Positions 24,077 to 62,636 of a stretch of DNA of 64,000 nt are shown here, piece by piece (positions within the stretch are counted from its first letter, which is position 1; each line of letters starts with the position of its first letter). Below the pieces are notes generated by a model. It was given only the letters and a program-made list of their open reading frames with translations, was not told the DNA's origin and made no database searches. A program made the position numbers and the translations under genes. The stretch is from NCBI GenBank assembly GCA_034520885.1, contig JAXHNE010000005.1:77748-141747 (forward strand), written 5' to 3'. This stretch comes from Candidatus Saccharimonadota bacterium. Its GTDB lineage: Bacteria > Patescibacteriota > Saccharimonadia > Saccharimonadales > JAXHNE01.

Positions 24077-24337
24077 ATGACCAAGCTTACGCCCAAAGAC
24101 ACCAAAGAAAAGCTGGAAAAGCAGACCGTATACTTGCCAAAGGAGTTCCGGCGTTATGTTCGTATGCAAGCCGCGCGCCAGCAAATGACTATTTCGGACT
24201 ATTTCATTCAAAAAATCGAGGAAGATCTCCAGGATTTAGAGGACATAAAAGCCATTGAAGAAGCAAAAAACTCCAAAGAAGACTACTATTCTTTGGAGGA
24301 ATTCACCAGGTTGTTAAAGCAAGATGGCATCTTATAA
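24077..24337 (+). CDS. type II antitoxin, ribbon-helix-helix type
   Basis: TVYLPKEFRRYVRMQAARQQMTISDYF. Overlaps the toxin gene by 14 nt. Confidence 0.65.
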   Translation: MTKLTPKDTKEKLEKQTVYLPKEFRRYVRMQAARQQMTISDYFIQKIEEDLQDLEDIKAIEEAKNSKEDYYSLEEFTRLLKQDGIL

Positions 24338-24584
24338 ATTACGAATTGCCAAACGGTTTTACAAAGATATAAAAAAGATCGACCAAAAGGACGCGGCAAG
24401 AATTTACAAAGCGGTGGTCAAGTTGGCGAATAACCCTGATCCTCCGGCAGCGAAACAGTTGCGAAATACTACTATGCGTAGTTTGCGAGTCGGGCAGTAC
24501 CGGGTGCTTTTTGAAATCCAGCGAGCCGAGCTGATAGTTTATGTTTTTAAAGCAGGACACAGAAAGGACGTTTACAGGAAATGA
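24324..24584 (+). CDS. RelE/ParE-superfamily toxin
   Basis: 86 aa with LRVGQYRVLFEIQRAELIVYVFKAGHRKDVYR. Confidence 0.88.
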   Translation: MASYKLRIAKRFYKDIKKIDQKDAARIYKAVVKLANNPDPPAAKQLRNTTMRSLRVGQYRVLFEIQRAELIVYVFKAGHRKDVYRK

Positions 24585-36897: not shown

Positions 36898-37164
36898 TTG
36901 ATTTCAGCGGAGAAGAAAAGCAAAGTTGTCAAAGACAACCAACGAAAGAAAGAAGATACCGGAAGCCCGGAAGTGCAAGTCGCGATTTTAACGGAGCGCA
37001 TTACCGAACTGACCGATCATCTAAAGGCCAACAAGCACGATTATATGGCTCGCCGCGGACTATTGCAGGCCGTTGGCAAGCGTAAGCGATTGCTGAAGTA
37101 CCTGGCCCAAGAAGACGGCGAGGCCTACCTAAAGCTAATCAAAAAGCTCGGTATTCGCCGCTAA
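36898..37164 (+). CDS. rpsO: 30S ribosomal protein S15
   Basis: [51 protein letters not shown] start. Confidence 0.95.
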
Positions 37165-37373
37165 ACGTAATTTAACAGAGAACAGATGACAGATTCCAGA
37201 AATTTAACAGAGAACAAGTGCCAAACAACTTTTAAACCGAGTCGTTTGTAGTTTGTAACCCGATAAATTTCTGATCCTTCATCCACCGCCCTTCGCAATA
37301 ATTATTTTTTGCCAGAATCGTTTTTATAAAATATTATAATTTAGAATGAATAAAAACAAGCCAATGGTAAAAA

Positions 37374-37622
37374 TACAATCGAGTGGTTGTAAATTTACAA
37401 TCGGACAATCGGGTCGGGGCAACAGGTGTTACAATCTGTACCCCAGATGAATGGGACAATCCATAAGCGGACATTCATCGCCCCATCGAATAGGACATTG
37501 CCACAGGACAATCATAATATTATATGGCGTACAATGCCTATTGCCAGAGACCGTACAATGATGTGCTACGTATCTTTGCATTGCTGTCGGTCTACTGGTG
37601 GACAATGCGACAGCGGACATTG
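37374..37622 (+). repeat. iteron array: 12 same-orientation copies of (G/T)(G/T)ACA(A/T)T(C/G)
   Basis: GGACAATC, GTACAATG, GGACATTG or TTACAATC at 37374, 37395, 37403, 37429, 37454, 37469, 37493, 37506, 37529, 37553, 37600 and 37615. Confidence 0.8.
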
Positions 37623-37706
37623 CTGTAGCACGGAGTCTACTCGGTCTATGTCGTGGCGCAACAGTTACAACTACTATGAATATGTTGTGATTTTGTTCTT
37701 GTTATG

Positions 37707-41600: not shown

Positions 41601-41627
41601 AAAAACTGGTTGCTATACCGCAACCAG
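41601..41627 (-). terminator. intrinsic terminator
   Basis: CTGGTTGC-GGTATA-GCAACCAG followed by T5, at the end of the GP88-family gene. Confidence 0.6.
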
Positions 41628-42457
41628 TTCTAATTTTTGTACATTGCTAACATCGGCTTTCAGTTGAGCAGGACTAATAACAAAACAACTGTTTAATACC
41701 TGTTTTTCAACTTGCCTGTTTGCAATACGTTTCCATTTTCAGACCTATTATAATACCATCGGCATCATCAACCCTATAGTCGGTAAGGTCGCCATTTACC
41801 ACGTTATAGCCACTATATTGAGCAGGTAATTCACTTTCTTTTTTGACATCGAATACCGTTGCTACATTGTGACCACGTTCAAGCATTGCTTCACATGAGT
41901 TCCAGTTCCTGCCTGTGTATGAGAGACGTTAAGTGGTAGTTAGGTGCAAGGTTATTGAATTTATTGGCGTTTTTCGTATAGTCGTAAAACTGTACATCAG
42001 GAAATATTTCGAAAATGTTTTGACCGTTAACTCTAACATTTTCCCAGTCGATATCCGAAGTACAATTTAATCTAACTGAAAAGAAATAACCATCTTTTTG
42101 TGCTTTTACCTGTTTTGCTTCGATATCAGCAATAAGCCACTGCATAAAAAATTCAGGTTGTTCATAAAACAATTTAGTTTTTTTGATACGTGCATTTAAG
42201 ATAGTGCATTTACCGCTAAACTCTTCAACGGCAACCCTACCGCTTGTATTTAAGCAACCCATACGGCATTCAGGTGTGCTATGTGAACACGTATTATAAC
42301 CACTTGTTTTGGCGGGTGCAAGGTGTAAGCCGTAGGTATACTGGTTGCTTACCTACCGCTTTTAAGCAGTTTTGCGCTTGCATTGATACTACCTAAATAG
42401 GGATAAACCTGTTTGTCTTTTTGCGTCTGCGATACTCTTAAAATTCATTGCTTTCAT
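41613..42457 (-). CDS. GP88-family phage protein, reading frame interrupted >=4 times
   Basis: Pieces in three frames read MKAMNFKSIADAKRQTGLS / YLGSINASAKLLKSG / VSNQYTYGLHLAPAKTSGYNTCSHSTPECRMGCLNTSGR... / EAMLERGHNVATVFD...VNGDLTDYRVDD. Confidence 0.6.
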
Positions 42458-42483
42458 TGTGTTATGGTTTTGGTTATGGTTAT

Positions 42484-42510
42484 TATACGAAAATAAGTTG
42501 TAATAGTTAC
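42484..42510 (-). promoter_or_regulatory. cassette promoter GTAAC-N16-CGTATAAT
   Basis: Drives the GP88-family gene (ATG 42457). Confidence 0.6.
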
Positions 42511-42576
42511 ATCTTAATTAAAATCTTTTTGGTTATTTACAATTTATTTTCGTGTGTGTCTGTGTGTGATAGTTAT

Positions 42577-42603
42577 TATACGAAAATAAGGTGTGAAAGT
42601 TAC
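42577..42603 (-). promoter_or_regulatory. cassette promoter GTAAC-N16-CGTATAAT, tandem to the previous
   Basis: No ORF before the next promoter, about 95 bp downstream. Confidence 0.5.
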
Positions 42604-42612
42604 GACCTGTGC

Positions 42613-42695
42613 TTATTTAGAACGGTTCTAAACTCAGAGTATCGGGTAGGGTTGCGATTACCGCACTGAGGTTATACCCTCCGTTGTTGTCTTAT
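42613..42695 (-). ncRNA. promoter-driven small RNA candidate, copy 1
   Basis: About 80 nt between a cassette promoter and the hairpin TTTAGAA-CCG-TTCTAAA. No ORF. Homologous to copy 2. Confidence 0.5.
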
Positions 42696-42701
42696 ACTTA
42701 T

Positions 42702-42728
42702 TATACGAAATAAATTAAAAAAGGTTAC
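42702..42728 (-). promoter_or_regulatory. cassette promoter driving small RNA copy 1
   Basis: -35 lies in the 3' arm of the hairpin AAGGTTGCG-AAAAA-CGTAACCTT. Confidence 0.6.
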
Positions 42729-42756
42729 GTTTTTCGCAACCTTTTTTAATTAAAAT

Positions 42757-43068
42757 CTAAACTTCTAATTCAAATACGCATTCCAGCATCAACTCAATTT
42801 CTTCACCCTCTGTTATCCATTTGTCGATTTGTTTCATGGTATAGCCATAAGCCATACAAGCATCAAGGATTTCACGATAACTGTAATCATCGTAGTCCAT
42901 TTCCTGCTCAAATACTTCGGTTTCCCCTGTTAAGGGGTCGATACAACGGTCTTCACGAAAAGCATATGTTTTGTCTTCAATGATTTCTTTTCGCATTTGG
43001 TTACAACTGGGGTCAGTTACTACCCAACCGTCTTGTTCCAGTTTTTTGATTTCGTCTTTTGTTGTCAT
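42757..43068 (-). CDS. hypothetical small acidic protein
   Basis: 103 aa with its own cassette and terminator. Confidence 0.55.
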   Translation of the reverse strand: MTTKDEIKKLEQDGWVVTDPSCNQMRKEIIEDKTYAFREDRCIDPLTGETEVFEQEMDYDDYSYREILDACMAYGYTMKQIDKWITEGEEIELMLECVFELEV

Positions 43069-43093
43069 TGCTTTGTGTTTTGGTTATAGTTAT

Positions 43094-43121
43094 TATACGT
43101 AAAAACCCCTGCAAAGGTTAC
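43094..43121 (-). promoter_or_regulatory. cassette promoter GTAAC-N17-CGTATAAT
   Basis: -35 lies in the loop of the CCCCTG/CAGGGG terminator hairpin. Confidence 0.65.
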
Positions 43122-43149
43122 ACTTCACAGGGGTTTTAATTAAAATCTT

Positions 43150-43365
43150 TTACTTAATCATTGGAATGTAATTCATTACTTCCAGTACTGCGTCTTCATC
43201 TTCCTCTGAAAGGTCAACGCTGAATACGTCTTCTGACTTGTCACAGGGTTGAACATCAAATTGCCAATCACTGTTTTTATCCTGCAACCATTTCTGAATT
43301 TCTTTTGCTGCTTCGAGCGGACTATCCGCATCGACTTCGATTTCCAATACTACTCTGTTTGTCAT
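43150..43365 (-). CDS. hypothetical small acidic protein
   Basis: 71 aa with its own cassette. Confidence 0.55.
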   Translation of the reverse strand: MTNRVVLEIEVDADSPLEAAKEIQKWLQDKNSDWQFDVQPCDKSEDVFSVDLSEEDEDAVLEVMNYIPMIK

Positions 43366-43393
43366 AATTTTTGTGTGTTTTGGTTATAGTTAT

Positions 43394-43420
43394 TATACGA
43401 TATTAATTAAAAAAGGTTAC
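43394..43420 (-). promoter_or_regulatory. cassette promoter GTAAC-N16-CGTATAAT
   Basis: Drives 43150-43365. Confidence 0.65.
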
Positions 43421-43427
43421 GTTTTAA

Positions 43428-43459
43428 ATAAAAAAACCCCCGTGTAACCAGCACGGGGG
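43428..43459 (-). terminator. intrinsic terminator
   Basis: CCCCCGTG-CTGGTTA-CACGGGGG followed by T7. Confidence 0.8.
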
Positions 43460-43504
43460 CATAACCCATAACCATAAATCACAATCAAATATTTTAAATT
43501 TCGT

Positions 43505-43825
43505 CTACAACGGCTCGGAAACCACCTTCATCTTCTCTATACATTTGGAGTTTGGGTGAAAAACTCTTACAAGATGACCGTTTATTTGTGTGTAGTATCC
43601 GAAGTAACTACCGTCTGTTAGAATATCGGTTTTATTTTTCTTTAAATACGTTATAAAATCTTCTTCTTTGTCTCCAAGTGGATAACCAGTTTCGTGTTCG
43701 ACTTTCAATTCGCTGAACGGAATTGTTCTCGGACTCAGATTCTTTGTGGTTTTGGTTATCCTGATAGCGAATCTACCAAAGGGTTCTAACTTGAATTCCT
43801 GTGATTTTGTTAATGTGATTTCCAT
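43505..43825 (-). CDS. hypothetical phage protein
   Basis: 106 aa with its own cassette and a strong terminator. Confidence 0.55.
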   Translation of the reverse strand: MEITLTKSQEFKLEPFGRFAIRITKTTKNLSPRTIPFSELKVEHETGYPLGDKEEDFITYLKKNKTDILTDGSYFGYYTQINGHLVRVFHPNSKCIEKMKVVSEPL

Positions 43826-43850
43826 CGCTTTGTGTTTTGGTTATAGTTAT

Positions 43851-43877
43851 TATACGAATAATTTCAGTCAGGGTTAC
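43851..43877 (-). promoter_or_regulatory. cassette promoter GTAAC-N16-CGTATAAT
   Basis: Drives 43505-43825. Confidence 0.65.
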
Positions 43878-43923
43878 ACACCCATGAGTTTTAATTTTTG
43901 ACCTGAATTAAATGGGTCATAAA

Positions 43924-44082
43924 TTACAGGTCTTTGTCATCATCGAAGTTCTGTTCTAAGTATGAACTATCAATAGTAAACATTCCACCTGATTGCTCAT
44001 GCTTAAAAACGGACATTGATACTTCTGCCTTTGTGTCGGGGTCTGTTACTGTGATTTCCTGTACGAATTTTGCTGTGTTCAT
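43924..44082 (-). CDS. hypothetical small protein
   Basis: 52 aa (MNTAKFVQEITVTDPDTKAEV...). Below the ORF-track cutoff. Confidence 0.4.
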   Translation of the reverse strand: MNTAKFVQEITVTDPDTKAEVSMSVFKHEQSGGMFTIDSSYLEQNFDDDKDL

Positions 44083-44104
44083 TGCTTTGTGTTTTAATTA
44101 AAAC

Positions 44105-44353
44105 TTAACTATGATAATCAATTCCATCGGTATTCATACCTGTACAATCGGCTTTCTTTTCATAGTCCAGAAGAAATGACCAATGCATTGCAGGTAGTTC
44201 TTCATCATTCTGTGCTTTGAAATAATCAGGCACGGAATAATAGGTTGTTTCTTCACACTCTACAATTTCTTCGTAGGTGCTTGATTGGTCGATACCATTA
44301 CCTGTTTCGGTTGGCACGACTGCTACTCTTAAATCTCTTAAGTCTGGGTTCAT
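44105..44353 (-). CDS. hypothetical small acidic protein
   Basis: 82 aa with its own cassette. Confidence 0.55.
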   Translation of the reverse strand: MNPDLRDLRVAVVPTETGNGIDQSSTYEEIVECEETTYYSVPDYFKAQNDEELPAMHWSFLLDYEKKADCTGMNTDGIDYHS

Positions 44354-44379
44354 TGCTTTGTGTTTTGGTTATAGTTATT

Positions 44380-44406
44380 ATACGAAAAAACCCCTGAAAG
44401 GTTACG
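44380..44406 (-). promoter_or_regulatory. cassette promoter GTAAC-N16-CGTATAAT
   Basis: -35 lies inside the CCCCTG/CAGGGG hairpin (44392-44418). Confidence 0.65.
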
Positions 44407-44431
44407 TTATTCAGGGGTTTTAATTAAAATC

Positions 44432-44709
44432 TTATCTTCTTTCGTAGTACAGTTTCCTGATTTTCCATAAATGGTCTTCGGTGTAATCTTTACCCATTAC
44501 CTTATTATAGAATTTCAGAGCAGGAAGTAAATCATTGACGTTCTTCTCGCCTTCGTAGTCTGTGAACCCATCTGAACTAAACGTATAGTCCAGAATATCA
44601 ACTGCTGCAAGTAGACAAGCCACAACAAGCAGGTCATAAGGTTTACGTGCTGTCTTACAGAAATTCCAACGGCTGTCTTCATTGATTCTGTCAATGAAAA
44701 ATGTTTCAT
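44432..44709 (-). CDS. hypothetical protein, one frame break
   Basis: ORFs 44515-44709 and 44432-44623 overlap in different frames. ATG 44709 lies 3 nt after the upstream stop. Confidence 0.4.
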
Positions 44710-44712
44710 GGT

Positions 44713-44973
44713 CTAAATCACGTTCGGCATTCCCATTAAACCAGACCGCATCTGCTGTGAATTCGGGTTCGTTATCTCCCTGACCACCTCGGATTTCGAG
44801 AGGGTCATCTGAACAATAACCACCTGCTGTATCTGTGGTTTTGGGTAGTTCGCCATGTAATTTTCTACATGCTTTTGAGAATTCCTTAAAGTCTTCTTTA
44901 GTATTCTCGGCTTTTGGTATCCAATAATGTGTGTATCCGATAATTGTAACGCCCTTTTGGGGTCGCCCTCCAT
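44713..44973 (-). CDS. hypothetical phage protein
   Basis: 86 aa with its own cassette. Confidence 0.5.
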   Translation of the reverse strand: MEGDPKRALQLSDTHIIGYQKPRILKKTLRNSQKHVENYMANYPKPQIQQVVIVQMTLSKSEVVREITNPNSQQMRSGLMGMPNVI

Positions 44974-45006
44974 TTTTTGGTTAATAATTTGGTTTCTTAT
45001 ACTTAT

Positions 45007-45034
45007 TATACGATATTAATTAAAAAAAGGTTAC
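45007..45034 (-). promoter_or_regulatory. cassette promoter GTAAC-N17-CGTATAAT
   Basis: Drives 44713-44973. Confidence 0.6.
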
Positions 45035-45071
45035 GTTATTCATGGGTTTTTTTAATTAAAATCTTTGTACA

Positions 45072-45275
45072 TTAGTCTTCATCCTCTTCATTATTTGTAA
45101 TCTCAATATCATCATCATCAATTGCACTAACGAAGATTTGTGGTTGTTCATCACTAAACCTTTGCTGTAAAACTGTGTTGATTTCTTCAAGCATATCTAA
45201 TGCCGTGTGTTTGTCTGCTCCATCATCGAAACTATCAAACTGAATTTGAATGTTTTTTACGATTATTGATTTCAT
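45072..45275 (-). CDS. hypothetical small, very acidic protein
   Basis: 67 aa ending in NNEEDED, with its own cassette. Confidence 0.55.
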   Translation of the reverse strand: MKSIIVKNIQIQFDSFDDGADKHTALDMLEEINTVLQQRFSDEQPQIFVSAIDDDDIEITNNEEDED

Positions 45276-45300
45276 TGTGTTTGGTTTTGGTTATAGTTAT

Positions 45301-45327
45301 TATACGTGTTTTAATTAAAAAGGTTAC
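45301..45327 (-). promoter_or_regulatory. cassette promoter GTAAC-N16-CGTATAAT
   Basis: The upstream gene's stop codon lies inside the -35 (ACG TAA CC). Confidence 0.65.
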
Positions 45328-45630
45328 GTTTTTAACCTGATTTGATTTTCATAAATAAAACCCTCATCATTCTCATTGTCGTAAAACTCCAAATCGTTAG
45401 CCACAAATACAGGAATATTACCATGCCAATCGTAAACTGGTGAGGCTTTGCAGTATGTTCTGGTCACCCTTACAATAACAATTGGATAGGGTTTATGTCT
45501 TGCGCCATTGTCGGGATGAATCGTTCTGACATCCAGAACCTCACCCTCACGCCATTCGTTAAGGTTCTCATTTCTGGGGTTGTTGATTAACACCTCAACG
45601 ACATCACCCTTTATAATTTTTTAGTTTCAT
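45324..45630 (-). CDS. hypothetical protein, frame break near the start
   Basis: ATG 45630 gives MKLKNYKG, then an extra G, then DVVEVLINNPRNENLNEW.... Confidence 0.45.
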
Positions 45631-45655
45631 TGTGTTTGGTTTTGGTTATAGTTAT

Positions 45656-45682
45656 TATACGAAAAAACCCTGCAAAGGTTAC
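45656..45682 (-). promoter_or_regulatory. cassette promoter GTAAC-N16-CGTATAAT
   Basis: -35 lies in the CCCTG/CAGGG hairpin. Confidence 0.65.
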
Positions 45683-45800
45683 AGGGTTTTTAATTAAAAT
45701 CTATATATTATTCTCATATTATTTTATCTATAGTGTGTCTTAGGGCGAACCTTTGTTTAGCGTTTCCATCGTTTACGGTTTTAATTAAAATCTCTATACA

Positions 45801-46007
45801 TTAGTCTTCTCTGACTTCGACATTATCTGCATCGACTTCGAATGCTTCTCCGCATTGGTCTTCGACAATCACCGTGCCACGGGATTCCAGAATACCATCT
45901 TTTACAATGATTCCGACAAAACTGTGATTATGCATATCACTTTTTCTGGGTGCTCCGACTTCAACTGTTTGGAATTCTTCGAGTAGTGTGCCTGTTTTTT
46001 CTAACAT
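45801..46007 (-). CDS. hypothetical small protein
   Basis: 68 aa. Confidence 0.5.
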   Translation of the reverse strand: MLEKTGTLLEEFQTVEVGAPRKSDMHNHSFVGIIVKDGILESRGTVIVEDQCGEAFEVDADNVEVRED

Positions 46008-46025
46008 GATTTTTGGTTTTAATGA

Positions 46026-46238
46026 TTATACGATATAGAACATTGTTGTTTCAGTGAATTGTTCACTAACTACGATTTTTGTCAGACCCACATTTTCGTT
46101 TTCCACTGGTGAAATGAAGCCATTTTCTGCCCTATCACTTAACGCTGATAAAGTGTTTTCAACAACTTCTTTAATCTCTTCGTCATCAGTGATTTTGTTG
46201 TCGAATTCAAGACTAACTACTAATTGAATTGTTTTCAT
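46026..46238 (-). CDS. hypothetical small acidic protein
   Basis: 70 aa. Confidence 0.5.
   Translation of the reverse strand: MKTIQLVVSLEFDNKITDDEEIKEVVENTLSALSDRAENGFISPVENENVGLTKIVVSEQFTETTMFYIV
46027..46052 (-). promoter_or_regulatory. cassette promoter variant GAAAC-N15-CGTATAAT
   Basis: The -10 overlaps the upstream stop (ATC GTA TAA). Confidence 0.45.
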
Positions 46239-46264
46239 GATTTCTGTGTTTTGGTTATAGTTAT

Positions 46265-46291
46265 TATACGAACAATATCTGAAAAGGTTTC
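46265..46291 (-). promoter_or_regulatory. cassette promoter variant GAAACC-N16-CGTATAAT
   Basis: Drives 46026-46238. Confidence 0.55.
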
Positions 46292-46365
46292 AGTTTATGG
46301 ACATTATATCAATAAAAAACCCCACAATATTGTTGCAGGGTTTTGTTTAGGACATTGTGTTGTTG

Positions 46366-47250
46366 TTAATCCTCAACTCTTTTGATGATGAACAATAACG
46401 TCTTTACCCTTGTATCTTTGTAGGGAAACTTAACCACAATCTCATAACCTGCATTGCTGTTAACTAAAAAGTTAACCAAGTCATTTGTTACTTCTGCCCC
46501 AGTTGGTTCTTTACCAGCATAACAGTTTTTGATATACTTATTACTATAACTGTTCATGCGGAGCGAATGATTTAAAACCCTGTCATTTTCTGATAGTGTT
46601 AAGGTAATGTACCCACCTTTTTTAACTAAATTGCGTTTCATCACATCATTGATTTCATCATAAAAAGTGTCGATGAAACCGCAGTAATCCAAAATAGCAC
46701 TACTATATGTGTCTTCGGCATCATTCACAATATGTTCACCAACGGTTTTGTTACGTAGTGGAAATAACTGAATCAAATAACTTGTCATTAGCCGTCAGAT
46801 TCCTAACCATTTCCTTATAGGTTTCTTTGTCACGTTCAACCGCAGTGAATTTATAACCACTTTTTTGTTTGAGGATGTTTTTCTCCATTATCCATTCAGC
46901 AGCAGGTAAGGTCAGGATATTACTACTTTGCCGTTTGGTTAACATAATTGATTCAGCAATTAATTGCCTTGCCTTATCTTTGGCTTTTCCATGATAATTA
47001 CTAAAAGTGTTTTTTGCTTCTTTTAACACGTTTTACTGGCTTCTTAGGTGCTTTTTTGGTTGTTGTCCCGTTTGCGGAATTAAGTGCTCTGGCTATCGCA
47101 TTTACTTGCCTAAATGAAGGCAAACCAAGAAGTTCAGCCAATTCGTTGTTGTCCATACTATCATAGTTTTCAATAATAGTATCAATCATTTTAGTTGTTC
47201 TGCCGTCAGTTAATTTAACGCCTTTGTACTTTTCAATTGTCTGTTGTCAT
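46366..47250 (-). CDS. ~295-aa protein in >=4 frame pieces (weak methyltransferase-like resemblance)
   Basis: ORFs 47001-47189, 46751-47029 and 46366-46788 overlap end to end. ATG 47250 follows the cassette. Confidence 0.35.
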
Positions 47251-47297
47251 GGTGTTTGTGATTTTGGTTAAACAATTTGTTTGTTGGTTATGGTTAT

Positions 47298-47324
47298 TAT
47301 ACGACACACACACGCAAAGGTTAC
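47298..47324 (-). promoter_or_regulatory. cassette promoter GTAAC-N16-CGTATAAT
   Basis: Drives the gene starting at 47250. Confidence 0.6.
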
Positions 47325-47356
47325 ACTATATGAAATATAATTTTAATTAAAACGAG

Positions 47357-47438
47357 TTATTTAGAACCATTCTAAACTCAGGATATAAGGTAGGGTCGGA
47401 TTACCGCACTGAGATTTTACTCTCCGTTGTTGTTGTTA
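47357..47438 (-). ncRNA. promoter-driven small RNA candidate, copy 2
   Basis: Shares CTCAGTGCGGTAATC, CCCTACC and CTGAGTTTAGAA. Helix GAGA/TCTC here corresponds to GAGG/CCTC in copy 1. Confidence 0.5.
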
Positions 47439-47444
47439 TACTTA

Positions 47445-47471
47445 TTATACGCAGAAATAAAAAAAAGGTTA
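47445..47471 (-). promoter_or_regulatory. cassette promoter driving small RNA copy 2
   Basis: -35 lies in the hairpin GGTTGCA-GAAA-TGTAACC. Confidence 0.6.
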
Positions 47472-47508
47472 CATTTCTGCAACCCTTTTTTAATTAAAAT
47501 CTTAATTC

Positions 47509-47838
47509 TTAATATGCTCTTGACGGCATTCTCTGGTTCTGTTCGTAACTCTGGCTCTCCCATTCGCTGTCGGGATTAGTGAGTTCAAAGAAATACTTGC
47601 GCAGTTGTTCAGCGATTTCATCGAGTTCCTTACAAACGCTTTCTTCAACGAATGACTGGTTGGCTCTAACTGTGTCGCTACTGCATACTCTGCCCAGCAT
47701 TCCACCACCTAAGTAGTTTTGATACGCTGACATTTTCTCGCCTTCAAAACCCAGTGTGTCGAGACTGATTTCAATTCCACCACCACGACCACCGATTTCC
47801 TGTCTTAATACGATTTCTTCAAAGTTAATGGTTTCCAT
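47509..47838 (-). CDS. hypothetical phage protein
   Basis: 109 aa with its own cassette. Confidence 0.55.
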   Translation of the reverse strand: METINFEEIVLRQEIGGRGGGIEISLDTLGFEGEKMSAYQNYLGGGMLGRVCSSDTVRANQSFVEESVCKELDEIAEQLRKYFFELTNPDSEWESQSYEQNQRMPSRAY

Positions 47839-47864
47839 TGTGTTAATGTTTTGGTTATAGTTAT

Positions 47865-47891
47865 TATACGTGTTTTAATTAAAAAGGTTAC
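47865..47891 (-). promoter_or_regulatory. cassette promoter GTAAC-N16-CGTATAAT
   Basis: Drives 47509-47838. Confidence 0.65.
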
Positions 47892-47892
47892 G

Positions 47893-48036
47893 TTAATTAA
47901 GACGTATTTCAAATATGTTTTCATTGCTGATAAACAAATACTTTGGATTGGTTTTGGCTTTGTACTCCCTAACATCTTCTTGTGTTGGCGGGTGACCTAA
48001 CATCTTTTCGAGTTTCTTAAATTCATAGAGGTTCAT
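47893..48036 (-). CDS. hypothetical small protein
   Basis: 47 aa, MNLYEFKKLEKMLGHPPTQEDVREY.... Confidence 0.35.
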   Translation of the reverse strand: MNLYEFKKLEKMLGHPPTQEDVREYKAKTNPKYLFISNENIFEIRLN

Positions 48037-48096
48037 GTCTTTAGTATTTTAATTACTTATACGTAAATACTCTGAAAACATTGAATTCTGAAATGG

Positions 48097-48124
48097 AAAA
48101 ACCCCCGTGTAACCAGCACGGGGG
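48097..48124 (-). terminator. intrinsic terminator (same hairpin as 43437-43459)
   Basis: CCCCCGTG-CTGGTTA-CACGGGGG followed by T5. Confidence 0.75.
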
Positions 48125-48169
48125 CAACCATGAATTAACTAAAACGACTACTAACTATGAATAATATTT

Positions 48170-48358
48170 TTATCTATTTGTAAACTCTTCCCACAACGCA
48201 TCGGGGTCAATTTCCTGTGTCAGGTCGCCACCTGTTCTTAATATGATGAACTTGGCGAAGTTAATGCGTTTAGTTGCTTCATCTCCATTTGTGTGAGATA
48301 TTATCTCCTGTGCGTCACTGAGGTGCGACATTACTACCATGCTTGCTTTCATTATCAT
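48170..48358 (-). CDS. hypothetical small protein
   Basis: 62 aa with its own cassette and a strong terminator. Confidence 0.5.
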   Translation of the reverse strand: MIMKASMVVMSHLSDAQEIISHTNGDEATKRINFAKFIILRTGGDLTQEIDPDALWEEFTNR

Positions 48359-48384
48359 TGCTTTGTGGTTTTGGTTATAGTTAT

Positions 48385-48411
48385 TATACGGATTCAGATT
48401 AAAAAGGTTAC
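48385..48411 (-). promoter_or_regulatory. cassette promoter GTAAC-N16-CGTATAAT
   Basis: Drives 48170-48358. Confidence 0.65.
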
Positions 48412-48412
48412 A

Positions 48413-48678
48413 CTACATCCAACCTTTTTTGAAATTGGTTTTCTCTTCTATCCAGTCCATTATTTTTTCTGCGTAATAGTATGAAGTCAGTTCTTCGAGA
48501 AATCTCTTATTTGACTTACTACGCCATATTCTTCAGTTGTTGTTGTTCCTTGTTTTACAACTTCTTTGGTGTTGTAGTCCAGTGCCTTTATCTGAATTAC
48601 TTTTACCTTTTATATCAATTCGGATAATTCCACCTATTGCGTATTCTCCGATTTTAAAACTCTTTGTCGCTTGTGCCA
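48413..48678 (-). CDS. hypothetical protein, frame broken
   Basis: MAQATKSFKIGEYAIGGIIRIDIKGK ... RFLEELTSYYYAEKIMDWIEEKTNFKKGWM. Confidence 0.4.
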
Positions 48679-48704
48679 TTGCTCTGTGGTTTTGGTTATA
48701 GTTA

Positions 48705-48731
48705 TTATACGTACATTAGTTAAAAAGGTTA
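48705..48731 (-). promoter_or_regulatory. cassette promoter GTAAC-N16-CGTATAAT
   Basis: Drives the gene starting at 48678. Confidence 0.65.
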
Positions 48732-48733
48732 CA

Positions 48734-48955
48734 CTACATCCAACCCTGTTCAATTATAACAGGTTTTCTCTTGTAATTAAAACCCCAGACTTCTCTCCAT
48801 TCACCCCACTCTCCACGTCTTGAACGAAATACAGTCACCTGCTTATCGGGTGCTTGTTCAATGAGTTCAGATAGTCTTGATTTCAATTCCGCATAGGTCG
48901 GAAACGGTTTCCATTCCTTGCCTACTACTGCTGTGGGTTTTGTCATTCGTGCCAT
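48734..48955 (-). CDS. hypothetical small protein
   Basis: 73 aa, ending in GWM like its neighbour. Confidence 0.5.
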   Translation of the reverse strand: MARMTKPTAVVGKEWKPFPTYAELKSRLSELIEQAPDKQVTVFRSRRGEWGEWREVWGFNYKRKPVIIEQGWM

Positions 48956-48982
48956 TGCTTTGTGGTTATTGGTTATAGTTAT

Positions 48983-49009
48983 TATACGTGTTTTAATTAA
49001 AAAGGTTAC
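48983..49009 (-). promoter_or_regulatory. cassette promoter GTAAC-N16-CGTATAAT
   Basis: Drives 48734-48955. Confidence 0.65.
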
Positions 49010-49010
49010 A

Positions 49011-49252
49011 TTAAACGTAATGATAATGCCACGCTAAAAAACCCTGCCTGTCCATATAAAACGCTGTAACATGATAATGATATTTGTCTTTACTGAATAA
49101 ATTGGTTCTAATATATTCTAAGGCATTTTCCACGGATTCAACCCTGTCGCTTTGCCGTCATCACCAGTCCAGTGTGAATTATTCTGAGTTAAGACCAAAT
49201 ATTTATTGGTTCTTGTGCTACGAATTGCGACCTTATGATACTTTGCTGTCAT
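49011..49252 (-). CDS. hypothetical protein, one frame break
   Basis: MTAKYHKVAIRSTRTNKYLVLTQNNSHWTGDDGKATG, then shifted to ESVENALEYIRTNLFSKDKYHYHVTAFYMDRQGF. Confidence 0.4.
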
Positions 49253-49264
49253 GGTACATTGTGG

Positions 49265-49450
49265 TTATTGGTTTTGAATATCATCAACAATCTTTTGTTG
49301 TATCTTTATTGCCCTGCATATAGCGAAGAACGGCATACCTTTGAGTTTCTTCATTTTATGAAGTTCAGATAGGACATTAACAGCGGTTTCGAGTTTATTA
49401 CCACTTGCTTTTGCAATAGTCAGTGTCGATATTATTGCGGTTGCGTTCAT
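49265..49450 (-). CDS. hypothetical small protein
   Basis: 61 aa from ATG 49450, just after the cassette. The ORF-track start at 49537 reads through the promoter. Confidence 0.45.
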   Translation of the reverse strand: MNATAIISTLTIAKASGNKLETAVNVLSELHKMKKLKGMPFFAICRAIKIQQKIVDDIQNQ

Positions 49451-49477
49451 GGTACATTGTGTTTTGGTTATAGTTAT

Positions 49478-49505
49478 TATACGTATAAATACAAAAAAAG
49501 GTTGC
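49478..49505 (-). promoter_or_regulatory. cassette promoter variant GCAACC-N17-CGTATAAT
   Basis: Drives the gene starting at 49450. Confidence 0.5.
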
Positions 49506-49543
49506 GTTTTACACAACCTTTTTTTAATTAAAATCATTTCTTT

Positions 49544-49878
49544 TTACACGTGACCACCAGACTTTACGGTTTCCATTACATCTGCTAGAGTTCTGGACAA
49601 TGGTTCGAAGTGCATATCTCTCTCAATACCCAAACCGAACATACCCCTAAAATCCTTCAACTCCTGCATTGATACAGTACCACATTCAGCATCTTCGGGA
49701 TAACCCAATGTTGCAAAACACATATAAACATCATCATCGAGTTTTTCGTACAAATACCATGTGCTTGCACCTGCGGGATAAAAGATTTCATGACAATTTT
49801 AATATCCTTTGCGGACTTCTGACTTGTGTCGCCTTGCTTTGCAAATGCTTTTTCGATTTCTTTGGTTATTAGTTTCAT
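49544..49878 (-). CDS. DUF2958-family protein, one frame break
   Basis: MKLITKEIEKAFAKQGDTS...KIVMKSF, then shifted to WYLYEKLDDDVYMCFATLGYPEDAECGTVSMQELKDFRGMFGLGIERDMHFEP. Confidence 0.6.
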
Positions 49879-49904
49879 TGTGTTTATGTTTTCGTTATAG
49901 TTCT

Positions 49905-49931
49905 TATACGGTTTTAATTAAAAAAGGTTAC
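49905..49931 (-). promoter_or_regulatory. cassette promoter GTAAC-N16-CGTATAAG
   Basis: Drives the DUF2958 gene. Confidence 0.6.
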
Positions 49932-50377
49932 ATTATTCGCTCATTTCTCCAATATATTGAAACATTCCCAATAAGGTGACAAAATATATGATTTCCCCAT
50001 GTAAAATATAATCCGAGGTTAACGCCATTATGAATAAGAGGTTTTGTGATTTTCTCAATCTCAAACATACCGATATTTGGAAAACTTTTCGTTTTTCCTT
50101 TCCCCTCATTAATTAAATGAAGTAAAACATCTTTGGCGTTATTAAAATCGGGTGTTGTTTTGGTTTCTTTTCCATAACAACCAACACTATATCTAAGAGT
50201 ATAACCCATTTTATTAACATCACCACGGGGCGAAGCCAATTCTTTTGCATCACAAAGAAAATCAACACCATCAAATCTATCAATGGTTATATAATGCACA
50301 TCATTTAACTCACTGAAAGTAATTACACCTTTGTTAATTAAATCTGAATGTTTGGTTTTAAAATATTCTAATGTCAT
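49928..50377 (-). CDS. hypothetical phage protein
   Basis: 149 aa with its own cassette. Confidence 0.55.
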   Translation of the reverse strand: MTLEYFKTKHSDLINKGVITFSELNDVHYITIDRFDGVDFLCDAKELASPRGDVNKMGYTLRYSVGCYGKETKTTPDFNNAKDVLLHLINEGKGKTKSFPNIGMFEIEKITKPLIHNGVNLGLYFTWGNHIFCHLIGNVSIYWRNERIM

Positions 50378-50402
50378 GGTTTTGCGTTTTGGTTATACTT
50401 AT

Positions 50403-50429
50403 TGTACGTATTTTAATTAAAAAGGTTAC
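50403..50429 (-). promoter_or_regulatory. cassette promoter variant GTAAC-N16-CGTACAAT
   Basis: Drives 49928-50377. Confidence 0.55.
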
Positions 50430-50493
50430 GTTTTATGGACATTATTTTAATTAAAACCATGAACATTATCACCCTGTTATTATGGACATTGCC

Positions 50494-51176
50494 CTATGCT
50501 GTTTGGCGAAGGCTTTGCAGTTGTTCCCTCAACTTGGTTTTACACCTGTTTATAGTTGCTTTAACTGTTCCCAAAGGTATATCAAGTGCAGCACATATTT
50601 CTTCATGACTTAATTTCCTTAAAAAGAACATTGTGGCAATCTTTCTTTGTTTCGCTGAAAGACTACGAAACGCCTCGGCTATGTTTTTACGACTTTCCTC
50701 GGACATCATGTTATCATCGGCTTGTATTGACGTTTGTTGCTCAAACATTGGCTTACCTTTATCATCGACATAATCATCGGTATTCAAATAACGGTCTGCG
50801 TGTTCGGTTCTATGATGGTCAATAACAACGTTTTTCGCAATATGGTATAACCACGTATTGAGTTTAGCAACATTAACATCATAGTTCTGTAAATGCTTTA
50901 TACATTTTCTAAAAACCTCACTTGTTAAATCTTCGGCAACCTCGGTTTCTCCCCTCCAACTCTCGGCAATATGTAGTAAAATATCTGCTTGTTATACTTT
51001 GTGTATATCTCGCTTATCTCATTTTCTTTTGTGCCGTTTTTCGCAATGTTCCAACTCTGACGTAAACAAGTGCTAAACATTTCCATTGTCCTGACTTCCT
51101 GAGCCTTATAGAATTTCCATGCTCTTCTCATTATCAATGACTTGTTGTAGTTGGCTACCAATTTTCTGTTTTTCAT
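50494..51176 (-). CDS. ECF-type (group 4) sigma-70 family factor, frame broken at a C4 run (50951-50954)
   Basis: Region 2 reads EIYTKYNKQIFYYILPRVGG / ETEVAEDLTSEVFRKCIKHLQNYD...LNTWLYHIAKNVVIDHHR. Region 4 reads LSAKQRKIATMFFLRKLSHEEICAALDIPLGTVKATINRCKTKLR. Confidence 0.7.
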
Positions 51177-51319
51177 AGCATATAAAATTAATGGTTAATA
51201 ATTGTGTCGCTTTGTTATTTCTACGCAGGGTTACAAAAAATGTTTCGTTTTTCAAGTTTTTTTTGTTATTTATAATGATTAAAAATAACAAGTGGATGCG
51301 AAAATAAATGCGATTCACT

Positions 51320-51346
51320 ATAACTTTTTTAATTAATCCACGTACA
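51320..51346 (+). promoter_or_regulatory. plus-strand cassette variant ATAAC-N16-CGTACA
   Basis: Leader TCTATAACCAACACACACACGACC, then ATG 51375. Confidence 0.5.
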
Positions 51347-51374
51347 CATATCTATAACCAACACACACACGACC

Positions 51375-51775
51375 ATGACAGCCGAAACCCTAAGTAATAA
51401 AAAGATAGTTGAACACATTAAATATGGTAATGGCACAAAAACAGTTTGCGTTTCGACTTGCTTAAACTATTTGGGTATTGCTCCAGACCAATACAGATAC
51501 ACTTCATCAAATAGAAATATGACCGCTTATATTAATGTATTTGAGAAAAACAGGTTATGCAGTTAGAAGCCGAATAACGAGAGTTTAAGGTAAAGAAATA
51601 TAATACCACCATGACAGCACTAAAAGCCGAAATTAAACGGTCAAAATACACTAAAACAGACTTATTTATTGTTAGTGGAGTGCAACAAAAATCTGCACAC
51701 CTTATGATATTAAACGGTAACGGAGAAACTGTAATAGATACCGCACCCAAAAGAAATGGCGCATACGTGCTGTAA
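51375..51775 (+). CDS. hypothetical protein, frame broken
   Basis: MTAETLSNKKIVEHIKYGNGTKTVCVSTCLNYLGI... continues in other frames to ...NGNGETVIDTAPKRNGAYVL. Confidence 0.4.
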
Positions 51776-51829
51776 ATCAAGTATTTAAGAATTAATTTGT
51801 AAAATAAATGAAAATAAATACGAATTAAT

Positions 51830-51856
51830 GTAACTATTTTCATTTATCCACGTAAT
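51830..51856 (+). promoter_or_regulatory. plus-strand cassette GTAAC-N16-CGTAATAAT
   Basis: Drives the ATG at 51907. Confidence 0.55.
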
Positions 51857-59156: not shown

Positions 59157-59710
59157 TCATGTATGTAATTTACGCACCAAACTGTTTTCATATGTTTTTT
59201 CCACGATGGAATTACCGAACATCTGTTCGACCATACTGTCGCCAAACATTTCCATGACCTTACTGTCTTCATCCATGAAATTAATACGGGCATAATCAAA
59301 CATTTTCTCCACAACAGTCCATTCCCACATTTCTTCGATTATCTGGTAATACATTTCATCTACACGTGATAAATGCTTAAGTCTATCAGCTTTACTTTGG
59401 TCACGCATTTCCAAGACATTACTATCGCCTTTCAGCGCTCCGATTCTCGCATAGTCACGCATTTTCACCGATTTTTGCTCCACCATACATTTTAACCACT
59501 TTACTGTAATCACGCATTTCTTTTGATTTTCGCATATCCCGGCGTTTCTTCGACTTTACTACCGTCTCTCATTATGCCAATAAACGCATCATCTGTCATG
59601 TATTTCACCACAGTGGTTTCATCGATAGCATCTATTCTGGCTTCGTCATACATCGCAAAGACTATGCAGTGTTTGGCTTCTTCGATACGAGTCATTTTAT
59701 TTAGAATCAC
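59157..59710 (-). CDS. repeat protein (about 11/22-residue periodicity), frame broken
   Basis: MRDYARIGALKGDSNVLEMRDQS, MFDYARINFMDEDSKVMEMFGDS and MYDEARIDAIDETTVVKYMTDDA units. Confidence 0.4.
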
Positions 59711-60764
59711 GCCTTCGCTGAAGCAAGAGTTTTTTTCTGCCCTTCACAATCATGGCTTCGATAATTGATTTCGAGTTCAGCCATGACTTTTGTGCAATAA
59801 TTTAACCGTGGTACCAGTCGGGAAAAAAACTTTATTATTCAACAGCGTGTAGTTATTGACATCATCGAGTCTGTGACCATCTTTGGGGCAGTACTTTTTC
59901 CCACGAAGAAATCTTCGGCAGCGATTTCATCTAATGTAAGATATTTATTGATTAAGTCGTTATGAGTCTGAGGCAAATATATCGTGAATAATTGTGCCAT
60001 CTTTTTTTATTATTACGGGATAAAAATGTTTCCATACTGCTTTTATTATAAATAGCTTACAGATATTAATATTGATTATAATATTAATTTATTAAATCTT
60101 TGTTTCCATTCCCTCGATTGCTTGGCAATTCGGGTTGGTCGATATAATCACCTAACTTGCTAATGGGTATACCATCCAGACCTTGGGTTTTTCCATTCGT
60201 TATATGTTAAAGTAATATTTAACTGCAACTCATCATCGTCTTCACGCTGAAAACCAACGTTCCACCATTACCTCCTGGAGAACCGAAATCCGTAACAGTT
60301 ATTGTTTTATCCTTTTGTCGTCTTTTTGCTAGTAAACAGTGTCCCCTCGAAAAAATTCGAACCCATATTTTTTCAATGTTTGTCTTAAATTATTTCATCT
60401 GCTTCTACTTTGAGCATAGATATTTTGAATATGGGTCATCAAGGTCTTCTAACATCCTATCCGAATCATCACTTATTTCCGAATCCATATGATTCGTAAT
60501 CGATATCATTATATCTGGACTTCATAAACAGCATCCGGTGAAAGGTCGATATTATCTTTAACATCTTCTACAAACTCATCGAATGTATTGAATTGTTTCT
60601 CGTTTTCTTCTCATGTATTCCAACATCCTATCAATTGAAAGATTACCGTCATTTACATCAAAAACGATGTCATTAAGTTGTTCTTTTGCCTGGCTCGAGT
60701 TCGGACATCATTTTCAGGGCTTCAGCACGTTCTGCCTAATATGTGTCCATGACAGTTTTCCATA

Positions 60765-60983
60765 TCACGCCGCTCGAAAAAAATCTTTCATCTCCCCGTC
60801 TACCCCAACAAGTTCATATGTTTTTTGTCTGGACACCCCTATTTTTTTGGCAATTTCCTGTATTTTTTTTATGTTGTTGTCACTAAGAACGTTTTGCATA
60901 TAATTCAATTCATCATCATCTGCATAACCATAACTACCATATGCGTCTGATGCCATCGAACTAATGGTATCGGATTCAATCAC
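60765..60983 (-). CDS. HTH-containing small protein
   Basis: IQEIAKKIGVSRQKTYELV is helix-turn-helix-like. Confidence 0.35.
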   Translation of the reverse strand: MIESDTISSMASDAYGSYGYADDDELNYMQNVLSDNNIKKIQEIAKKIGVSRQKTYELVGVDGEMKDFFRAA

Positions 60984-61646
60984 CTAAATCCAGAGCCTCT
61001 TTCATTTCATCCTCACTCATACCGAAGTCAACACTACCATGATATATTTCAACGTTATCTGGTGACGTGTCTTCGCTCACGAAATTACTTTTATTAATGA
61101 CTTCAAGTAGTTCGTCTTTCAGAACCCTCAGTTTTTAAACTCTGTTAGTCTCTTAACGCCTTCTAATAAACCAGCAGCACCCCTAAAATCAATTTAGCTA
61201 TTCTTGCTATTTTACGTTTAGCCAAATAGTTGTTGAATATGTCATAACGACAGATTTTCCTTTATTCTTAACAATTGTATCTAGATTGGTTTGTTTAGTC
61301 ATCTTTTAAAATGTGTTGTTGAAGATTCTGGATTGTCGGAGACGGATCTTGGTTGCCGCCATATCTCTAACTGTCATTTTCTGGTTGATTGAATTCCCAC
61401 ATGTGGAAATATGTTGTTGCCACCTTTTTTGTGTGACCTTCGGTGTGAGGGGTCACGAGCGATCCACCATTGACGGTCAACCATTGTTTTTGATGCGTCA
61501 TGTGACTATTTTGATGATGTGCCATTAGTAATATCTTTATCTGGTGCTACCAGATGCTTAATGCGCACTACTGGTATTTTCTATCTTTTGTTTAATGAGC
61601 TTCATAGTCATCGCCGGATTGGATTCGTGTTATATACGCATCCGAA

Positions 61647-62214
61647 CTATTCATGAATTCTTGGAATGTTCCGATATCCCCTGACTTTCTGAATAAAGAA
61701 ATTCTGTTGTTCTGGTTTTAACTTAATGAAATCAGCAGCGAGTTGTTTCATTTTTTCGTTTGTACGAGCATCGAGTTGTTTTGCCTGGGTTCCAAGATAT
61801 GATGGAAGTTTATCGTAGAGTTTTTTCAATGTTCTACTTTCTCTTCCATACTATCTAAGTCTCTTCTGGATTCCCTATAGGTTTCGTATGTTACAACTGG
61901 TTTACGGTAAGACGGTTAACGTGTTGTTTATTTTCTTTAAGATAATCATATAGTTTTTTTATGTCGTCAATAGGCATTCTCTCATTGACATAGAATTTAG
62001 TTAATAAATTCGTGTACCCATCACCTCTTGGAGCATGATTAATGGTATCCAAGATTTTTTTACCTTCTTGTGATACTTGGGGGTCAACGATTTTTTTCTT
62101 TTGAAGATAATTTGATTGCCTGATTCGGATTTTTTCCAAACAACAAACCCTCGGATATATAATACTTCGAGGCTGAGATAATTGGTGCAATCTTAATTTT
62201 TGTTCCGTTAACAT
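61647..62214 (-). CDS. hypothetical protein in 3 frame pieces
   Basis: ...NRLTVNQL / VTYETYRESRRDLDSMEEKVEH / LKKLYDKLPSYLGTQAKQL.... Each junction is repaired by adding one T. Confidence 0.4.
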
Positions 62215-62247
62215 CAGAATAAGTTTTTCATAAAAATACTTGGCGTT

Positions 62248-62274
62248 GTAACCTTTTTAACTTTTTATCGTATA
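62248..62274 (+). promoter_or_regulatory. plus-strand cassette GTAAC-N16-CGTATAAT
   Basis: Drives the DUF2227-like gene (ATG 62297). Marks the minus-to-plus strand switch. Confidence 0.6.
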
Positions 62275-62296
62275 ATATCGCGAAAAAATAAACGTT

Positions 62297-62636
62297 ATGC
62301 CTAACGGAAGAACACATGACATCATAACATTGCCGCAACGGCACCAATTATTGGTGTTGGTACTCATTATCTTACGCATGATATCAGAACCACAACCACT
62401 TTAACGTCCTGCTTATGTTTTCGCAGCACTGATGTTCAATGGTGATTTGGATCCCGATAGCCGACCATATGATCGGTGGTGGGTTTTTTAAAATGATTTG
62501 GATTCCTTATCAATTGATATTCGAACACCGAAGCGTTTTCACTCACGGTATCATTATTGGGACTGTGGTGAGAACTTTTATATGTGTTGGTGATACCGAT
62601 ATCAATAATAGCATTAAAGGGCATAGGGATGCCTGA
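62297..62636 (+). CDS. DUF2227-like metal-binding protein, frame broken
   Basis: MPNGRTHDIITLP... then FNGDLDPDSRPYDRWW and MIWIPYQLIFEHRSVFTHGIIIGTVVR in other frames. Confidence 0.45.

Follow-up and report, generated by a model that had tools for sequence, protein, structure and literature searches.

Does the frame break in the phage-like ECF-type sigma gene at 50494-51176 reflect a recoding signal, a decaying gene or a fault in the deposited sequence? Within the window, i.e. the whole stretch of 64,000 nucleotides that was analysed, an uninterrupted coding sequence, as expected of an ECF-type sigma factor, is missing, and the gene occupies two minus-strand frames offset by one base. The original prediction had described ORFs at 50925-51176 and, with an upstream extension, at 50494-50787 in frames displaced by 1, and both frames were confirmed. 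The gene is made up as follows.

50925..51176, minus strand: upstream piece of the sigma gene, an 83-aa ORF with the N-terminal module and the first helix of region 2
50494..50991, minus strand: downstream piece, an open frame with the remainder of region 2, the linker and region 4
50928..50991, minus strand: zone with both frames open, delimited by the stops in each frame, which must contain the frame change
50946..50954, minus strand: likeliest lesion site, coding-strand GGGGAGAAA (plus strand TTT-CT-CCCC), placed by comparison with the related contig L001 and the homologues

The 83-aa ORF (51176..50925, minus strand) reads MKNRKLVANYNKSLIMRRAWKFYKAQ...IYTKYNKQIFYYILPRVGGEKPRLPKI, followed by a stop codon; it leaves the sigma frame after ...PRVGG and has the C-terminal end ...YTKYNKQIFYYILPRVGGEKPRLPKI before the stop. 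In the intact homologues P0002, P0003 and P0005-P0011 it aligns with residues 1-75, and it also aligns with L003/L004. The downstream frame (50991 to 50494, minus strand) contains ...ESWRGETEVAEDLTSEVFRKCIKHLQNYD...WLYHIAKNVVIDHHR... and then the region-4 helix-turn-helix; it can also be shown as ...ESWRGETEVAEDLTSEVFRKCIKHLQNYDVNVAKLNTWLYHIAKNVVIDHHR..., running on through region 4. Its earliest ATG, GTG or TTG codon lies at 50787. For the NCBI product MDZ7785984.1 (50494-50982, 162 aa, MLLHIAESWRG...), the only possible start is the ATT codon at 50982.

Addition of one G results in a protein of 227 aa that matches Sigma70_r2 (PF04542, 2.8e-11), a domain that is whole only after joining the frames, as well as Sigma70_r4_2 (PF08281, 9.7e-9). 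On the TIGR02937 sigma70-ECF model, for which the curated cut-off is 42.9 bits, the repaired protein reaches 95.2 bits and matches positions 3-165 of the 165 in the model. Its scores on equivalog and subfamily models all fell short of their cut-offs, and it gave no match to sigma region 3 or region 1 domains. In the AF2 secondary structure, a disordered linker connects a sigma2-type helical domain to a sigma4-type one. The expectation that one inserted G fuses the pieces into a region 2 plus region 4 ECF sigma, recognised by both Sigma70_r2 and Sigma70_r4_2, is borne out by these domain matches, and both pieces belong to one ECF-type sigma gene. Each of the 13 homologues (identity 33-71%) is a single ORF, and so are the sigma genes of L001 and L003-L006. 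A recognisable anti-sigma domain was not found among the ORFs neighbouring the sigma gene.

Where the frame changes can be narrowed down by comparison with the closest relative L001, a 16-kb ENA contig with about 85% DNA identity that is syntenic with the window from 41.6 to 51.8 kb. At the junction, the window has GGAGAA (6 nt) and L001 has AATA (4 nt). Thus, the window carries two bases too many or one too few at this position, where the close homologues read PRVGG-K/I-TE(I/V)AE(E/D)L. The frame can be restored by a two-base deletion, of GA or of the bracketed Gs in GGG[G]A[G]AAA, where loss of the Gs gives GGKTEV, the family consensus; by extension of G4 to G5, giving GGGETEV; or by extension of A3 to A4, giving GGEKTEV. 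Lesions in G4, (GA)2 and A3 all fit, and the site can be placed to 50946-50954 and no more finely. Homologue length favours two extra bases over one missing G: the +G repair leaves the loop one residue longer than in 12/12 homologues aligning there without large gaps, and deleting two bases brings it back to homologue length. The original prediction had assigned the break to a single base in the C4/G4 run (plus-strand C4 at 50951-50954). The break itself stands, but three lesions are equally possible and the one in this run is just one of them. HMM scores were tried as a means of locating the break and rejected. The out-of-frame peptide ILLHIAESWRG scores on Sigma70_r2 as the in-frame one does, and HMM scores alone therefore cannot locate the break.

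The offset corresponds to -1 in the ribosomal sense, and the frames would be fused if one base were read twice at GGG-G or AAA-C. Programmed -1 frameshifting, transcriptional slippage or phase variation at G4/A3 could then gate the regulon via full-length sigma made at a controlled rate, a proposal that we regard as exceedingly improbable. The 64-nt doubly open zone at 50928-50991 holds zero X XXY YYZ heptamers, and the 111 nt from the site onward have a minimum free energy of -16.6 kcal/mol compared with a shuffle mean of -17.9 (z = +0.48). Transcriptional slippage and phase variation usually need runs of 7-9 or more, and the runs at the break, only G4 and A3, are too short for either. The break is shared by 0/13 homologues and 0/5 related loci. 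Moreover, at least eight other genes have breaks whose sequence contexts are unrelated, several of them with +1/-1 pairs enclosing stop codons. Programmed -1 sites such as those of dnaX, IS elements and the phage tail-assembly chaperone G/GT resemble the sigma locus in having two overlapping frames offset by -1. In contrast to them, the sigma break comes without a slippery heptamer, downstream stimulatory structure or conservation, in agreement with the earlier ranking of -1 slippage as less likely.

The two pieces might also be functional as they stand, the 162-aa ATT-start product as a truncated sigma and the 83-aa ORF as a separate small N-module protein. The 162-aa protein is annotated by NCBI and still reaches 94.5 bits on TIGR02937, stand-alone small N-module proteins are common, and module-less relatives exist (L001, L005, L006). 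However, the first region-2 helix (IYxKYxxQIFYFIL), which is present in every homologue, is replaced by an out-of-frame peptide in this product. Its translation would require the rare ATT start, and a cassette or leader of its own is absent. Even the module-less L001 gene, which begins at the same MKN codon, retains the first region-2 helix. Such a division of labour is very improbable.

The original prediction had treated the break as specific to the sigma gene, where it might gate a regulon. This view did not hold, as the break is one of about 20 small frame-breaking indels, all in the low-GC phage-like part of the window. Split genes were scored against intact orthologues in six related contigs, and the L001 proteins were searched against the window by tblastn. 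Besides the sigma gene, at least eight genes between 41.6 and 62.6 kb are split across frames.

41619..51792, no strand assigned: stretch of synteny with L001 that holds six further frame-split genes, as judged by intact orthologues (the six genes, from tblastn with L001, follow)
51308-51792: 161-aa gene divergent from the sigma gene, in four frame pieces
49878-49547: DUF2958 gene, in two pieces
80-aa gene, in two pieces
47228-46369: 288-aa gene, in three pieces
42457-41619: GP88 gene, in three pieces
88-aa gene, with a +1/-1 pair 100 nt apart and a stop codon in between
59160..62573, no strand assigned: region with two more split genes, as judged by intact orthologues in L003 and L004
60034-59160: split gene with a 312-aa orthologue in L003
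62294-62573: split gene with a 142-aa orthologue in L004

The splits in the GP88 and DUF2958 genes were confirmed by intact orthologues in independent IMG/VR phage contigs (L003-L006, L009). Gene-by-gene DNA alignment of 14 genes (about 5.3 kb of coding sequence) gave 16 single-base indels, made up of 11 insertions and 5 deletions. The affected base of the longer allele stands alone in six cases; in the others it belongs to a run, of 2 bases (one case), 3 bases (four), 4 bases (four) or 5 bases (one). With about 8 runs of at least 5 bases available per kb of this region, the process is not homopolymer-driven. The spectrum is unlike replication slippage. The explanation proposed earlier, a homopolymer base-calling error, survives in part only: a sequence error remains the likeliest cause, but 6/16 indels lie outside any run and only 1/16 in a run of at least 5. 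Apart from the indels, the genes are well preserved. In 1756 frame-corrected codons, dS is 0.455, dN 0.079 and dN/dS 0.17, and the only in-frame stops are two in a badly aligned patch of GP88. Synteny with L001 and gene lengths are retained, and there are no large deletions.

The window falls into two parts. From 1 to about 37.2 kb, GC is near 50% and the genes are bacterial housekeeping genes (ArgRS, glutamate dehydrogenase, DnaG, RpoD, PolA, Fpg, HolA, an ABC-F ATPase, methyltransferases, ParDE, S15). The remainder, beginning at about 37.2 kb, carries phage-like genes at a GC of about 36%. Twelve bacterial genes, which make up about 13.9 kb within 1-37.2 kb, have full-length domain matches and zero frame breaks; at the indel rate of the phage part, these 13.9 kb would hold about 40 breaks. 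Runs of 4 or more number 19 per kb in the bacterial part versus 24 per kb in the phage-like part. The clean bacterial part and the similar run density together exclude a uniform base-calling error, and the consensus-error reading therefore needs the added assumption of a quality that is specific to the region. A uniform homopolymer error in particular was rejected, as run density is about equal in the clean part and most indels lie outside runs. Whatever produced the indels affected only the foreign segment.

The drop in GC from 50% to 36% comes immediately after rpsO (36898-37164). An integrase, a tRNA or an att-type repeat was not seen near this left junction (the right end lies beyond the window), and Rfam and tRNA scans of the window gave no matches. 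Related viral contigs are 128-366 kb in size. Either integration or a mis-join during assembly could have created the junction. Within the junction stretch (36898-37700), many GGACAAT/GTACAAT/GGACATT repeats occur at 37380-37660. Elsewhere in the bacterial part, a toxin-antitoxin pair of a ParD-like (DUF6290) and a ParE protein at 24077-24584 is flanked by two methyltransferase genes. At the starts of the bacterial genes at 1311, 13913, 17762, 20118 and 33959 (plus strand), a TAnACT box lies 6-9 nt before the ATG and a Shine-Dalgarno sequence is absent, a pattern that suggests leaderless mRNAs in this Saccharibacteria-labelled genome.

Might the breaks be real? The low-GC segment could be a defective prophage that derives from a large phage integrated downstream of rpsO and decays by small indels, the sigma gene being one of its pseudogenes. 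This is a serious but unlikely explanation. It would account for the restriction of the breaks to the foreign segment next to intact host genes, a contrast that homopolymer content fails to explain, and in the deposited contig the segment is indeed joined to host DNA. On the other hand, the frame-corrected codons contain 0-2 doubtful stops and appear to be under constraint by their dN/dS, large deletions are lacking, the L001 synteny is preserved, and 22/22 promoter cassettes (see below) are still exact. The excess of insertions over deletions and the location of most of them outside long runs are the opposite of the deletion bias and slippage spectrum usually reported from bacterial pseudogenes. 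The left junction is without integrase or att-type site, and the relatives are phage contigs of 128-366 kb, a size class that is usually not temperate. As for the missing nonsense codons, a rough estimate from published bacterial mutation spectra is that 0.2-0.4% indels go with 1-2% substitutions. By this estimate, real decay would predict 2-5 nonsense codons in 1756, and their absence is only moderately improbable.

Taken at its full extent, the idea of genuine indels implies a Saccharibacteria (CPR) genome with a large integrated jumbo-phage-like remnant beside rpsO that decays almost solely by single-base indels, the frameshift in the sigma gene having silenced the sigma/cassette regulon. 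We consider this scenario distinctly unlikely. If true, decay by almost purely single-base indels would be an unusual mutational regime, and the locus would provide the first link of this phage group to a CPR host.

We therefore return to an error of the consensus sequence confined to this region, which is the probable cause of the sigma frame break; in all likelihood the frameshift is not real as a feature, and the indels of the segment would be artefacts rather than mutations. In the deposited contig (an NCBI MAG of Candidatus Saccharibacteria with locus tags U5L95_), an indel of 1 or 2 bases breaks the sigma frame and belongs to a dense small-indel population limited to the low-GC segment (about 37.2-64 kb). 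The likeliest origin of this population is poor consensus quality of the phage-like segment. The segment may have had low or mixed coverage, its polishing may have failed or may have succeeded for the host part only, or a thinly covered phage contig may have been fused into a chimera with a bacterial contig of good coverage. The position of the junction after rpsO without integrase or tRNA and the size of the viral relatives fit a mis-join or a separately covered phage. A near-identical copy was not found by blastn/megablast against 50,697 phage records, nor a close relative in protein-seeded scans of IMG/VR, GTDB genomes and JGI metagenomes, and exact look-ups returned the proteins of the window as singletons. 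The pattern resembles an indel-rich consensus from long-read or hybrid metagenomes, in which many isolated 1-base indels interrupt otherwise well-conserved genes with an excess of insertions, little dependence on run length and no nonsense changes. It differs in that only the low-GC segment is affected here, whereas such errors normally span the whole contig. The phage-like half of the deposited contig is consequently not trustworthy at single-base resolution. NCBI proteins from this half are fragments, for example the 140-aa MDZ7785975.1 and the 162-aa "sigma factor" with its ATT start, and any claim of recoding, pseudogenes or small ORFs in this half needs read-level support.

The genes around the sigma gene share a promoter-like cassette. 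GTAACC-N15/16-CGTA has 22 exact occurrences in the window compared with 0.66 expected, and 20 of these are minus-strand sites between 50429 and 37709. The minus-strand cassettes each precede TATAATAAcTATAACCAAAAC... and then, about 25-30 nt on, an ATG without Shine-Dalgarno sequence. Four more cassettes with one mismatch lie in the phage-like segment. Downstream of their sigma genes, L001, L003 and L005 have 20, 8 and 5 copies of the cassette, respectively. By this association, the sigma factor may be the one that reads the GTAACC-N15/16-CGTA cassettes. The positions closest to the sigma gene are as follows.

50405..50429, minus strand: first cassette downstream of the sigma gene, GTAACC-N15-CGTA, at the head of the minus-strand run of 20
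51177..51307, minus strand: intergenic region upstream of the sigma gene, in which an exact, correctly spaced cassette is absent
51830-51854, plus strand: one-mismatch cassette ahead of a 205-aa gene

Upstream of the sigma gene itself, the conserved element TTTTTTGTAACC-CTG-CGTA has its GTAACC at 51234-51229 and its CGTA at 51225-51222. That a GTAACC is present here without a correctly spaced CGTA had been noticed before, and this is correct: the CGTA comes after only 3 nt, and no exact N15/16 cassette exists in this region. The element, in the form TTTTTTGTAAC-N3-5-CGTA, is common to the window, L001 and L003. A GAAACA (51246-51241), which matches the -35 box in 4/6 positions, lies exactly 15 nt before the upstream CGTA. 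Host-dependent expression of the sigma gene, or expression by another form of the polymerase, is plausible, and weak autoregulation via GAAACA-N15-CGTA is possible. A scan for sigma-70-type promoters upstream of the sigma gene gave sites no more frequent than in shuffled sequence.

Further elements accompany the cassettes. GC-rich terminator-like hairpins (e.g. CCCCTG...CAGGGGTTTTT) at 43096-43146, 44381-44430 and 45658-45707 (minus strand) enclose the -35 box of the following cassette, and termination and the next initiation thus share the same ~50 nt. The spacer measures 16 nt in 2/22 cassettes (43096-43121 and 45009-45034, minus strand) and exactly 15 in 20/20 cassettes of L001; the two longer spacers may be further single-base insertions. 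A conserved non-coding unit of about 80 nt with its own GTAACC-N15-CGTA cassette occurs at 42600-42728 and 47345-47472 (minus strand) of the window and at 5550-5680, 6709-6840 and 10754-10880 of L001. It has three predicted hairpins, with GC-to-AU compensatory changes in the first stem, and gave no Rfam match. This unit is a candidate for a phage small-RNA family.

The N-terminus of the sigma protein raises a question of its own. Its first ~50 aa had been described as not sigma-like; Pfam indeed gives no match there, and this part is a separate module of about 45 aa.

51033..51149, minus strand: N-terminal module, residues 10-48, YNKSxIMxRAW...F..CLRQSWNIAKNG, a predicted helical hairpin

The module is conserved in P0002, P0003, P0005-P0011, L003 and L004. 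P0012 retains its second half only, and it is cleanly missing from L001/P0004, where the same MKN start codon is kept, as well as from L005 and L006. AlphaFold predicts two helices, 12-24 and 31-47, with a pLDDT of 85-89 for residues 11-40. No Pfam relative of the module was found, and a profile search of the PDB with it gave hits at chance level only (best E=0.012, to a HAT-repeat protein). Residues 8-53 of the window protein match phrog_8305 (E=7.8e-6) and phrog_28198 (E=9e-3), and the module of P0002 matches phrog_8305 with E=3.9e-8. The module also matches phrog_12732; none of these three families has an assigned function. A profile search of 1.84 billion cluster representatives identified 513 carriers. 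Among the best hits, about 35 are sigma fusions of 210-250 aa, and most of the other carriers are short proteins (46-160 aa) in which the module occupies one terminus. This distribution points to an optional, mobile phage domain that is widespread and uncharacterised. As to its role, partner binding is a guess.

In summary, the gene would be an ordinary single-ORF ECF-type sigma gene of a large phage, with a helical-hairpin module as an optional N-terminal addition to its product. The presumed role of this sigma in related phages is to steer the host RNA polymerase to about 25 GTAACC-N15-CGTA promoters, which would precede small genes on either side of the sigma gene. It is a phage ECF-type sigma of a known type with an unusual N-terminal fusion. 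Its significance lies in a family of phage ECF-type sigmas from phages of 128-366 kb with a conserved AAC/CGT-type promoter set, some members of which are fused to a hairpin module.

Several known sigma factors invite comparison. With cellular ECF sigmas (TIGR02937; SigW-, SigM- and BldN-type models), the protein shares a full-length superfamily match and the restriction to regions 2 and 4. In contrast to them, it is phage-borne, has an N-terminal extension and stays below every subfamily cut-off. The best annotated phage matches are the sigmas of crAss-like phages (cr50_1, cr10_1, cr1_1 and others, annotated as "RNA polymerase sigma factor" or sigma-W), with 29-32% identity over 77-93% of the window protein. 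They are nevertheless distant, and the matches mostly begin at residue 45 and leave the N-terminal module largely uncovered. The sigma factor of phiEco32/Kuravirus binds E. coli RNA polymerase, as stated in a passage of PMC7881722 that cites Savalia et al. 2008. It is likewise a small phage-encoded sigma of region 2 plus region 4, the likeness drawn here being one of domain layout. A role in redirecting the host RNA polymerase to phage-specific promoters is presumed, and an adjacent anti-sigma was not recognised next to the sigma gene of the window. The family described here differs from the phiEco32/Kuravirus sigma in its optional N-terminal hairpin of the phrog_8305 type, in its candidate promoters GTAACC-N15-CGTA, which have the classic AAC/CGT form of ECF sigmas, and in the size of its relatives, which are phages of 128-366 kb.
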